In this document: positions 54,719 through 56,582 of the stretch, in pieces
Numbering within the stretch: the stretch's first letter is position 1
Layout of the letters: each line of letters starts with the position of its first letter
Made by a program: the position numbers and the translations under genes
Assembly: GCF_041260155.1 (NCBI RefSeq)
Contig: NW_027248355.1
Span: 2,516,078 to 2,580,077, forward strand
Reading direction: 5' to 3'
DNA length: 64,000 bases
Origin: Ptychodera flava
Lineage: Eukaryota
The notes under the pieces: generated by a model
Databases searched by the model: none
What the model was told of the DNA's origin: nothing
What the model saw: the letters and a program-made list of their open reading frames with translations, nothing else

Positions 54719-54992
54719 CTAGTGCTCCTTCAGCCGTGCACCATACCCGTTCCCTTCAAACCACTCTCGTACTTCATCGGTGACTATCTTCATTGGGTTC
54801 GTCATCTGGTCTAACATAGTCGAACCAATAAACCTGATATCAGTTTTCTCGCAGATGAACGCCCTCACAGGGTATCCTGGATAGGCAGTGATGAAGGTGT
54901 TCTTCATGTCGTCGACGAGCATGCGCACTCGTTTGTGGTCCGTGATATCGGTTGTGAAAGTCTGATTTTCGGAATCGAATTCGATCAGCATC
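54719..54992 (-). CDS. Deiodinase-like selenoprotein gene A, exon 3 (C-terminal thioredoxin-fold half; stop at 54719–54721)
   Basis: Acceptor ggcag|g at 54992. R+MLIEFDSENQTFTTDITDHKRVRMLVDDMKNTFITAYPGYPVRAFICEKTDIRFIGSTMLDQMTNPMKIVTDEVREWFEG... aligns with the deiodinase C-terminus (...RLRAAHLL..VVVDTM.N....Y.A.PERLYVI..G.I.YKG..GP..Y...EVR..LE). Confidence 0.7.
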
Positions 54993-55346
54993 CTGCCACG
55001 AGGAAAATTAATGAGAGTCTATTTACATCGTGCATATACAGTCACCCGTAATCTAGCTATGCCCATATATGGTCGAAGAGGCGTTCCTCGGTATTACAAA
55101 TGCCCATTTGAGGGCGCTGATTTTGAAAAGCCGCCGCCCGCTTAAAATCTGTGATTGGTTACATTTTCTCTTTCCATGGTAACTGTGGCAAAATTGGAAC
55201 AGGTGATGACAGTATATCTTTAAATGACTGATCTACATACGTAGTGAGTGGGAAGTATAGGACCCATGCGAGCGGATGATGCAAGAAGCGTTATGCTTTG
55301 TGGCCAGTGTATTTATTATCGGTATAGTGATAATGTAGTAATTTAA

Positions 55347-55554
55347 AACACGATTGGAACTAATTTGGGATAATTGGATGATAAAGTAAGATCGTTTTAA
55401 CCTGCAAATGTAAGCTCATCTGTTTTTCTTTGTTACACACTTGTTTTATAAGTAATTTGTAATATTACAACATTCAGCTATGTGGCACCTAACACTTTTG
55501 AGAAATATGAAAAATATGAAGATCCAATTATCCCAAATTAGTTCAAATCGTGTT
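55347..55554. repeat. MITE with ~33-bp TIRs (aacacgattggaactaatttgggataattggatg / reverse complement), in the intron of deiodinase gene A
   Basis: The TIR pair is visible. A related terminus (ccaattactccaagttagttacaattgtgtt) occurs at 58125–58160. Confidence 0.6.
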
Positions 55555-55800
55555 CTATTGCATTAGACGACTTCGTTTCCAGACGGCGTTCTCATACCTG
55601 GTCATATTCCACACAGCCTGACACATACATCTTTTGCAGTGAAGCTTCATTAGCTGTCATTATGCATACTTATTGACACTCTGATCTCCTCCAACCAATT
55701 GCCTTACTCTAAGAGAAAATCCCTACACAACAAAATAGCTGGGGTGGTAATGTTAATTTCTGTTATCTCCAGCACAGACAAGTCAAATGCGTCCACTTAC

Positions 55801-55973
55801 CTTGCAGCTTGTATCCGTTCATCAATATCATTGTGCTGAGCAAGGCAGCTCAAGACGCTGCCGATATCGAATACTTCTTTCTCGTGAGCCTCTCGGATGT
55901 AGATGAAAAGAAACTCAGCCAGGTTGCCATAGTCAGTTTGTAGTCTGTGCAGGGCGCCACAGTCGACTATGAC
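55801..55973 (-). CDS. Deiodinase-like gene A, exon 2
   Basis: ttgtag|gtc...gca ag|gtaagt; VIVDCGALHRLQTDYGNLAEFLFIYIREAHEKEVFDIGSVLSCLAQHNDIDERIQAA; the motif AEFLFIYIREAH corresponds to the deiodinase ADFLLVYIDEAHPSDGW. Confidence 0.7.
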
Positions 55974-56160
55974 CTACAAGTAATGGTGGAATACGGCCAT
56001 CAAAATCGGATACTGTTAAGGTGCTTTGTCACCTATCCTTGCAAAGTGATGTACAATTTCCTTCATCATTAATATTTAACTGCTAACGTTCCATAAGTAG
56101 ATATAACCATGGATATTTCCACACACACACAGACACACATACATACATACATATAAATAC

Positions 56161-56167
<7 letters not shown>

Positions 56168-56210
<43 letters not shown>

Positions 56211-56235
56211 CTTTTTGCTTAAAGTAATTTGTGTG

Positions 56236-56313
<78 letters not shown>
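56168..56313. repeat. Compound (AT)n...(AT)n(AG)n microsatellite
   Basis: Visible runs. Confidence 0.9.
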
Positions 56314-56315
<2 letters not shown>

Positions 56316-56390
56316 TTAAAGCTATCTCGTCTTTTAACTTGACTAGCGCCATAACCGATTTCACAATTTATTTTGTAGTGCCATACTCAC

Positions 56391-56582
56391 CCGACCCCCG
56401 GGTCAGCTAAGCGAGGTTGAAAATATCACCAACAACTTTTTATCATCAAGATGTAACCGTGACAACAGTACGCGTTCCTTTGTCTCTATGGAAACCAACT
56501 CGACATCAGGTCGCTTGCTTCCCACGGACAGCCAATCCTCTAGAGGTCGCCCTTTCGTTCTCAAGTAATCAAAATATTCCAT
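56391..56582 (-). CDS. Deiodinase-like gene A, exon 1 with an in-frame TGA (selenocysteine) at 56403–56405
   Basis: ATG at 56582 (minus). MEYFDYLRTKGRPLEDWLSVGSKRPDVELVSIETKERVLLSRLHLDDKKLLVIFSTSLS-U-PGGR|gtgagt. The motif LLVIFSTSLSUP matches the deiodinase active site PLVVNFGSxTUPPF. The frame continues into exon 2. Confidence 0.65.

Follow-up and report, generated by a model that had tools for sequence, protein, structure and literature searches.

A four-exon gene of the deiodinase family in the acorn worm Ptychodera flava, mis-annotated around an in-frame TGA that is probably read as selenocysteine

Gene structure and existing annotation

The DNA analyzed here is a stretch of 64,000 nucleotides of the hemichordate Ptychodera flava (RefSeq assembly GCF_041260155.1, contig NW_027248355.1, positions 2,516,078 to 2,580,077), referred to below as the window; all coordinates are window coordinates. 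Two tandem paralogues of the deiodinase (DI) family, gene A and gene B, lie on its minus strand, each with a TGA codon inside the reading frame. Gene A, the subject of this study, adds a new and mis-annotated member to the DI selenoproteins already known from invertebrates. Its TGA stands at the position of the catalytic selenocysteine (Sec) of vertebrate deiodinases, and a candidate selenocysteine insertion sequence (SECIS) is found in its 3' untranslated region (UTR).

The corrected coding sequence of gene A comprises 903 nt in four coding exons and encodes 300 amino acids (Table 1). All six splice sites are canonical, the introns are bounded by GT...AG, and the sole internal stop is the TGA at codon 148. 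The translation of exon 3 starts with VIVDCGALHRL and that of exon 4 with (R)MLIEF. A preliminary description of the locus had proposed a model of three exons (56582..56391, 55973..55801 and 54992..54719). The exons, translations, frame and splice sites of that model were recovered: joined, the three exons give 639 nt in frame with one internal TGA, and the frame runs on past the TGA through PGGR to the GT donor and into the next exon, as had been claimed. The proposed start at ATG 56582 had to be given up. This codon encodes an internal Met; the exon begins 3 nt earlier, at 56585, directly after TTTCAG, and an upstream exon (59021..58761) had been missed. The product of this exon is 100% identical to residues 1-87 of the RefSeq protein XP_070549556.1 (P0001).

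It had also been predicted that an ORF finder reading TGA as a stop would overlook the gene; the public annotation does lack its Sec exon. XP_070549556.1, a Ptychodera flava protein of 235 aa named 'thyroxine 5-deiodinase-like', joins exon 1 straight to exon 3 and lacks the Sec exon. The RefSeq model of the acorn worm Glandiceps talaboti (P0002), 63% identical to the gene A product in a protein search, retains most of the Sec exon, and only 13 codons around the TGA are removed by use of a cryptic donor (ATG|GTGATA). A cryptic donor placed just before a TGA is typical of a gene predictor dodging a stop. In Saccoglossus kowalevskii each of two tandem copies has been annotated by RefSeq as two separate genes.

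The same errors recur throughout the subfamily. The affected RefSeq models (P0001-P0003 and P0121-P0160) end at the residue before the TGA, begin just after it or are spliced around it, and they span P. flava, G. talaboti, S. kowalevskii, the crinoid Anneissia japonica, the brittle star Amphiura filiformis and sea urchins. Many entries are 'uncharacterized proteins' of 145-205 aa whose last residues are precisely ...SS[LIAF]S, as in fragments from P. flava, G. talaboti, a crinoid and a brittle star; others are 'deiodinase-like' proteins of 120-150 aa that begin just past the TGA. Mis-annotation of selenoproteins is the rule and a recognized general problem (PMC13134290; PMC3753652). With so many models of the family cut at the TGA, started late or spliced past it, any tally of ambulacrarian selenoproteins or 'deiodinases' that relies on public annotation will be wrong.

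Protein family, fold and motifs

For scoring of the gene A product, Sec was replaced by Cys. The corrected product matches the Pfam family T4_deiodinase (PF00837) with 55.8 bits and the three-exon product with 57.1 bits (cut-off 27); the product of gene B scores 86.4 bits. When a profile of three hemichordate sequences was searched against the Protein Data Bank (PDB), only Dio3 (4TR3, E 3.8e-14) and Dio2 (9H48, E 6.8e-11) were significant. The TGA column falls on the Sec position of both structures (Cys in the crystal construct), which in Dio3 is the residue before PPF. The placement of the TGA at the Sec position of deiodinases in the preliminary description is thereby confirmed.

The active-site motif of gene A is SLS-U-P, in which Sec, followed directly by Pro, would stand where helix alpha-1 begins in the thioredoxin-like fold. 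A second motif, FLFIYIREAH, was identified, and its Y, E, A and H do not vary across a family alignment of 18 sequences. The Glu and His of VYIxEAH are the proposed proton relay. The PSDGW that follows EAH is replaced by EKEVF in gene A and in its G. talaboti orthologue; EAHP(S/E)DGW, or a sequence close to it, is found in gene B, Saccoglossus, echinoderms, bacteria and vertebrates.

The fold was assessed on a Cys-form homologue from a sea cucumber (P0124, about 30% identical to gene A). Its AlphaFold2 model (predicted local distance difference test score, pLDDT, 85.8; predicted template modeling score, pTM, 0.83) was matched by Foldseek to Dio2 (E 6e-12) and Dio3 (E 1.5e-11), with target TM scores of 0.80-0.81, and to other thioredoxin folds such as ResA and peroxiredoxins at E 1e-5 or worse. 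Judged by its sequence, and by the predicted fold of this proxy homologue, the gene A protein is in the DI family.

The N-terminal region is of a different kind from that of the vertebrate enzymes. No 19-residue window within residues 1-118 of gene A reaches a Kyte-Doolittle hydropathy of 1.6, the maximum being 0.82, and the AlphaFold2 model of exon 1 is a soluble helical bundle (pLDDT 90.9) for which no informative fold match was obtained. By sequence comparison, gene A belongs to an Ambulacraria-wide DI subfamily, present in hemichordates and echinoderms, that has an N-terminal helical domain and no membrane anchor. The term 'deiodinase-like' of the preliminary description is therefore sound as a statement of family resemblance, to which the Pfam and PDB profile matches attest, and not as regards a vertebrate-type N-terminal membrane anchor; on the present comparisons the name 'deiodinase' denotes family membership only.

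Conservation of the TGA and coding constraint

The G. talaboti orthologue (locus L001) has exons of 261, 195, 173 and 268 nt, vs. 261, 195, 173 and 274 nt in P. flava. Its exon 2 ends in ...YMVIFSSSLS-TGA-PGGR followed by gtaagt, and the Sec exon of gene A is 68% identical to this 195-nt exon at the protein level. Gene B reads ...SSSAS-TGA-PTLR followed by gtaagt, and its middle exon likewise has 173 nt. Both tandem copies of S. kowalevskii read ...IIASSLS-TGA-PPLS followed by gtaa.

The uninterrupted frame was also observed in a Logan contig (L002, run ERR6349665), which is intron-free and is probably a transcript. It contains one frame of 308 codons with a single TGA, at ...IIIASSLS-TGA-PPFQ. 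An in-frame stop lies 12 nt 5' of its ATG, and this homologue therefore has no hidden N-terminal extension. Among named proteins, the nearest to it comes from a brittle star (54% identical). A nearly identical, likewise intron-free contig from a different run (L003, ERR6349749) also encodes a subfamily protein in full length, again with a single TGA in the frame. The source of the two contigs is probably an echinoderm.

Two full-length sea-cucumber relatives, P0124 from Apostichopus and P0199 from Logan, carry Cys in the Sec column (SSSIS-C-PLLK). Such a pairing of Sec and Cys in one alignment column is the classical mark of genuine selenoprotein families.

Coding constraint was estimated with a Nei-Gojobori count between gene A and its G. 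talaboti orthologue. The ratio of non-synonymous to synonymous differences per site (pN/pS), for which the synonymous sites are near saturation, is 0.33 for exon 1, 0.30 for the Sec exon, 0.21 for exon 3 and 0.24 for exon 4. In the four codons after the TGA the two species differ by two synonymous changes and no non-synonymous change. All exons of gene A, the Sec exon included, are under purifying selection by this measure.

When 1.84 billion cluster representatives were searched exhaustively by HMMER with the G. talaboti protein, only 72 relatives reached E <= 1e-3. Those with a named source belong to hemichordates, a crinoid, a brittle star, sea urchins and a sea cucumber. A word-indexed homology search had given two matches only; it was the profile search and the exhaustive search of representatives that revealed the family.

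These data bear directly on the structure proposed by RefSeq, in which the TGA exon would be absent from the mature mRNA and exon 1 would be spliced to exon 3, yielding a protein of 235 aa without Sec. XP_070549556.1 has exactly this structure, and since both junctions are in phase 0 the frame would be kept. However, the exon to be skipped is conserved as coding sequence across genera, in its amino acids and pN/pS as in its length of 195 nt and its canonical splice sites, and it encodes the beta-strand and the active-site loop, the part aligned with Dio3 and Dio2, so that the fold would be left without its catalytic residue. Moreover, the G. talaboti model keeps most of the exon and cuts only the codons around the TGA, and in L002 the homologous segment is contiguous with the rest of the open reading frame (ORF). 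We regard skipping of this exon as improbable, although it is the alternative that survives best.

A SECIS-like element in the 3' UTR

The preliminary description had pointed to a weak SECIS candidate near 54590-54640, and a match to the Rfam family SECIS_1 was indeed detected there, on the minus strand (Table 1). Helix I of the hairpin is formed by GGGUUU (54632..54627) and AAACCC (54582..54577), and the core by AUGA (54625..54622) and UGA (54588..54586). In helix II, which counts 10 bp, a single A.G mismatch is present. Ten nucleotides form the apical loop, which opens with AAA (54609..54607), 12 nt past AUGA; this is the layout of a type I SECIS. All sequence and spacing features of a SECIS are present at 54634..54574; the Rfam score is sub-threshold and the quartet is U.C, not U.U. 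No other SECIS match was obtained in 12 kb scanned on both strands with all 4227 Rfam families. Its E-value is 0.11 over the 621-nt 3' region and 4227 families, and about 3e-5 when SECIS_1 is counted alone, the SECIS hypothesis having been fixed in advance. Past the element lies a hexamer that is a possible poly(A) signal of gene A (Table 1).

The element has counterparts in the relatives. The 3' UTR of the G. talaboti orthologue gave a matching Rfam SECIS hit of 19 bits with a canonical AUGA/UGAU core. A generic pattern-and-energy scan, with a background of 13 matches in 128 kb of the window (0.10 per kb per strand), returned a single candidate apiece for the 3' regions of gene A, gene B and G. 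talaboti, and a tandem pair for S. kowalevskii. An extended core, UGACGA...UCYGAYA, is common to all five candidates; it occurs nowhere else in the window (0.10 expected), and in the fetched loci at the candidate sites only. Because this pattern was derived post hoc from the five candidates, only the absence of other matches is informative.

Pairing in helix II is conserved as well. The two pairs next to the core are invariant, and pairs 3-5 show compensatory changes (U-G/U-A/C-G, G-C/U-A and U-G/G-C/A-U). The pairs were counted from the constrained fold of each candidate itself, since a MAFFT alignment of the five mis-registered gene A. When a covariance model was built from the other four elements, the gene A site was the best non-training match in 64 kb, with 17.9 bits. 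Based on these comparisons, the hairpin of gene A is a probable SECIS.

No SECIS was reported by Rfam for gene B, for S. kowalevskii copy 1 or for contigs L002 and L003, and the pattern-and-energy scan gave no candidate in the 200 nt at the 3' end of L002, a contig that is possibly truncated there. In S. kowalevskii copy 1, two near-identical SECIS-like hairpins were observed 247 nt apart (L004, 11624..11701 and 11871..11948). Both have CGAU in place of UGAU as the 3' core and are unreported by Rfam.

Interpretation

We put at roughly 0.85 the probability that gene A functions as a four-exon member of the DI family (PF00837), with a soluble product of about 300 aa in which UGA148 is read as Sec. 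This view is taken because the TGA and the frame beyond it are conserved, a Cys homologue exists, the product matches the family, and a SECIS-like hairpin is conserved.

Several observations weigh against it. The sole existing gene model, that of RefSeq, omits the TGA exon. The SECIS_1 score of 21.9 bits falls short of the gathering score of 35 bits, and the 3' core reads UGAC, giving a U.C quartet instead of the usual U.U. The consensus of the 3' SECIS core is KGAW (PMC3753652), from which UGAC departs. The energy of the upper stem is modest (-4.7 kcal/mol), the z-score of the whole-hairpin fold is only -2.0, and the leave-one-out match of the covariance model to gene A has a rough E-value of 0.3. 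The fold test rests on a homologue about 30% identical and not on gene A. Finally, the EAHEKEV of the gene A lineage suggests that its catalytic properties may differ.

Some of the same observations would suit a decaying tandem duplicate, in which the TGA would be a nonsense mutation and the hairpin a chance structure. The gene does lie in a tandem cluster, a setting in which pseudogenes are frequent, and DI cluster members without a SECIS have been described (PMC3473315); the sub-threshold SECIS score and the replacement of the conserved PSDGW point the same way. Yet gene A has one in-frame stop in 300 codons and six intact splice sites, and its TGA stands at the same codon in the orthologue, which belongs to another enteropneust family, in paralogues and in echinoderm relatives. 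Purifying selection extends over all exons, the codons after the TGA among them, and the SECIS-like element is conserved with compensatory changes. The EKEVF variant is not a sign of decay, because it is conserved in G. talaboti. Decay is accordingly judged still less probable than exon skipping.

UGA followed by C, which is a leaky termination context, is found in all copies. Near-cognate readthrough without Sec (as Trp, Cys or Arg), or termination with a main product of 147 aa, as several RefSeq 'uncharacterized proteins' of 145-165 aa ending at the TGA would have it, is nevertheless the least probable reading. This C merely opens the conserved Pro codon. The UGA occupies the site at which DI proteins have their catalytic Sec or Cys, and one orthologue does have Cys there. 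Furthermore, a SECIS-like element is found in each 3' UTR examined with enough sequence, hemichordates use Sec (the SPS2 of S. kowalevskii is a selenoprotein query; PMC3753652), and the 147-aa fragments are gene predictions, not observed proteins. Even taken together, the three alternatives are unlikely.

If gene A encodes a selenoprotein as proposed, Sec insertion, expression and catalytic chemistry may be inferred as follows. The type I SECIS-like hairpin (54634..54574) would bring SECIS-binding protein 2, together with eEFSec and Sec-tRNA[Ser]Sec, to the translating ribosome, and UGA148 would be decoded as Sec in the manner established for eukaryotes. The Sec residue would then occupy the catalytic place of vertebrate deiodinases at the start of helix alpha-1. 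By analogy with the family, the protein is most likely a selenol-based reductive dehalogenase or oxidoreductase, in which the selenolate would attack a halogen or an oxidant and be regenerated by thiols. As two exon junctions lie 3' of the UGA, a shortage of selenium should expose the mRNA to nonsense-mediated decay.

It has been shown that acorn worms accumulate large amounts of halogenated aromatics, bromophenols and relatives (PMC6315191). Because of this biology, the missing membrane anchor and the lineage-specific expansion in enteropneusts, it can be speculated that the subfamily is a cytosolic Se-dependent dehalogenase of such compounds and not a thyroid-hormone deiodinase; we hold this to be a rather unlikely function. 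The lineage of gene A and its G. talaboti orthologue, with EAHEKEV, could be a further neofunctionalized branch, to judge by the motif.

Comparison with known deiodinase systems

The vertebrate deiodinases DIO1-3 (mouse Dio3, 4TR3/4TR4; Dio2, 9H48) are the best sequence and fold matches of the subfamily to which gene A belongs. Common to both are PF00837 and the thioredoxin-like catalytic domain, a UGA codon at the Sec position, where helix alpha-1 begins and just ahead of a conserved Pro, the motif (D/E)F(L/x)xVYIxEAH, a C-terminal helix with ...EVRxWLE, and a SECIS (SECIS-like in gene A) in the 3' UTR. The differences are considerable, with an identity of only about 25%. Vertebrate DIO1-3 have an N-terminal single-pass anchor, whereas gene A has a helical domain of about 100 aa instead; this anchor marks the vertebrate enzymes and not the Pfam family PF00837. 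The active site is STSLS-U-PGG in gene A vs. GSxT-U-PPF in vertebrate DIO, EAHEKEV stands in place of EAHPSDGW, and gene A has an insertion of about 13 residues (SENQTFTTD...) relative to Dio3.

Among invertebrates, Jiang et al. (2012; PMC3473315) found 4-12 DI selenoprotein genes in each of Trichoplax, Lottia, Capitella and amphioxus. Such genes often form tandem clusters on one or both strands, and some have two SECIS elements or none (PMC3473315). The clusters resemble gene A and gene B in being tandem and Sec-encoding, with their own 3' SECIS (SECIS-like in gene A and gene B), and in having been missed by annotation, and the amphioxus gene with two SECIS elements resembles the S. kowalevskii copy with two hairpins. 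Hemichordates and echinoderms were not included in that survey, and the part of it consulted contains no description of an N-terminal helical domain or an SxSUP motif like those of the ambulacrarian proteins.

Cys-type 'deiodinase-like / redoxin family' proteins of bacteria and protists (e.g. P0005 from Opitutaceae and P0062 from Verrucomicrobiales) also possess PF00837, together with peroxiredoxin-like motifs. Their scores are on a par with those of vertebrate DIOs (70 vs. 56 bits for Dio3, in a word-indexed search dominated by metagenomes). They are soluble or secreted, not anchored like vertebrate DIOs, and have signal peptides or TPR fusions in place of the helical N-terminal domain. Those examined read GSYT-C-PPF (e.g. 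P0005), with Cys rather than Sec, and have no eukaryotic SECIS.

With gene A and gene B, hemichordates join the invertebrates that have tandem clusters of Sec-encoding DI genes. Thyroid-like endocrinology of hemichordates is essentially unstudied (PMC10083991), and an ambulacrarian subfamily with a soluble helical N-terminal domain bears on when deiodination of the thyroid-hormone type arose in deuterostomes. The family is already well known, and nothing reported here would surprise a specialist in selenoproteomes.

Neighbourhood of gene A

The features of the window are listed in Table 1. Gene B has its introns at the same positions as gene A and keeps the canonical EAHPSDG; the window probably ends before the first exon of this gene is reached. 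At least one more family member (XP_070549627.1) was observed on the same 2.86-Mb scaffold of P. flava.

Table 1. Positions of gene A, gene B and other features within the 64,000-nt window.
Feature	Positions	Strand	Description
Corrected coding sequence, gene A	59021..58761 / 56585..56391 / 55973..55801 / 54992..54719	-	903 nt, 300 aa
Coding exon 1, gene A	58761..59021	-	MDSWLQ...KWGFDPD, 87 codons; ATG 59021..59019; GTACGT donor
Coding exon 2 (Sec exon), gene A	56391..56585	-	FMEYFDYL...LLVIFSTSLS-U-PGGR, 65 codons; TTTCAG acceptor, GTGAGT donor
In-frame TGA, predicted Sec	56403..56405	-	codon 148 of the corrected coding sequence
Coding exon 3, gene A	55801..55973	-	173 nt, VIVDCGALHRLQTDYGNLAEFLFIYIREAHEKEVF...IQAA(R); AG before, GTAAGT after
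Coding exon 4, gene A	54719..54992	-	(R)MLIEFDSENQTFTTD...VREWFEGNGYGARLKEH; AG before; stop TAG 54721..54719
SECIS-like hairpin, type I, gene A	54574..54634	-	3' UTR, 85 nt past the stop; Rfam SECIS_1 21.9 bits
Possible poly(A) signal ATTAAA	54526..54531	-	~45 nt past the SECIS-like hairpin; hexamer common in AT-rich DNA
Gene B, tandem paralogue	61141..63579	-	exons 63579..63370, 62502..62330, 61387..61141; TGA 63384..63382
SECIS-like hairpin, gene B	60759..60835	-	non-canonical GUGA core, ~320 nt past the stop of gene B; pattern-and-energy scan
tRNA-Leu (anticodon UAG)	52968..53049	-	Rfam 58.9 bits, ARAGORN
TRIM-NHL-type ORF	1381..3417	+	long, single exon; RING, B-box, filamin, NHL
TRIM-NHL-type ORF	18705..20702	+	long, single exon; RING, B-box, filamin, NHL
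Retroelement remnants	5749..8631	-	integrase-core ORF 5749..6882; SCAN (gag-like) domain ORF 7642..8631
Inverted repeat	61729..61816		intron 2 of gene B; 32-nt arms, 84% complementary, 24-nt spacer
Microsatellites (AT)n, (AG)n	56139..56313		intron 2 of gene A
Microsatellites (GTAT)n, (TC)54	60105..60268, 60559..60664		3' of gene B
Microsatellites (GA)n, (GAT)n	63294..63332, 63819..63876		near the Sec exon of gene B

The tRNA-Leu gene is situated about 1.5 kb 3' of gene A. The two long TRIM-NHL-type ORFs appear to be paralogues. A B-box/RING/NHL gene also adjoins the G. talaboti orthologue (L001, 20678-22595), and the presence of a TRIM-NHL-type gene near a DI gene in both species suggests conserved synteny. 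Retroelement remnants were identified at 5749..8631.

The inverted repeat in gene B is probably a small transposon-like hairpin; sub-threshold matches to plant microRNA (miRNA) models were obtained on both its strands. The Rfam hits near gene A to mir-297, MIR5565 and other miRNA or small nucleolar RNA (snoRNA) families lie on microsatellites or on the inverted repeat, are far sub-threshold and were rejected. The spurious hits to mir-297 and mir-3149 are due to the microsatellites around the DI genes.

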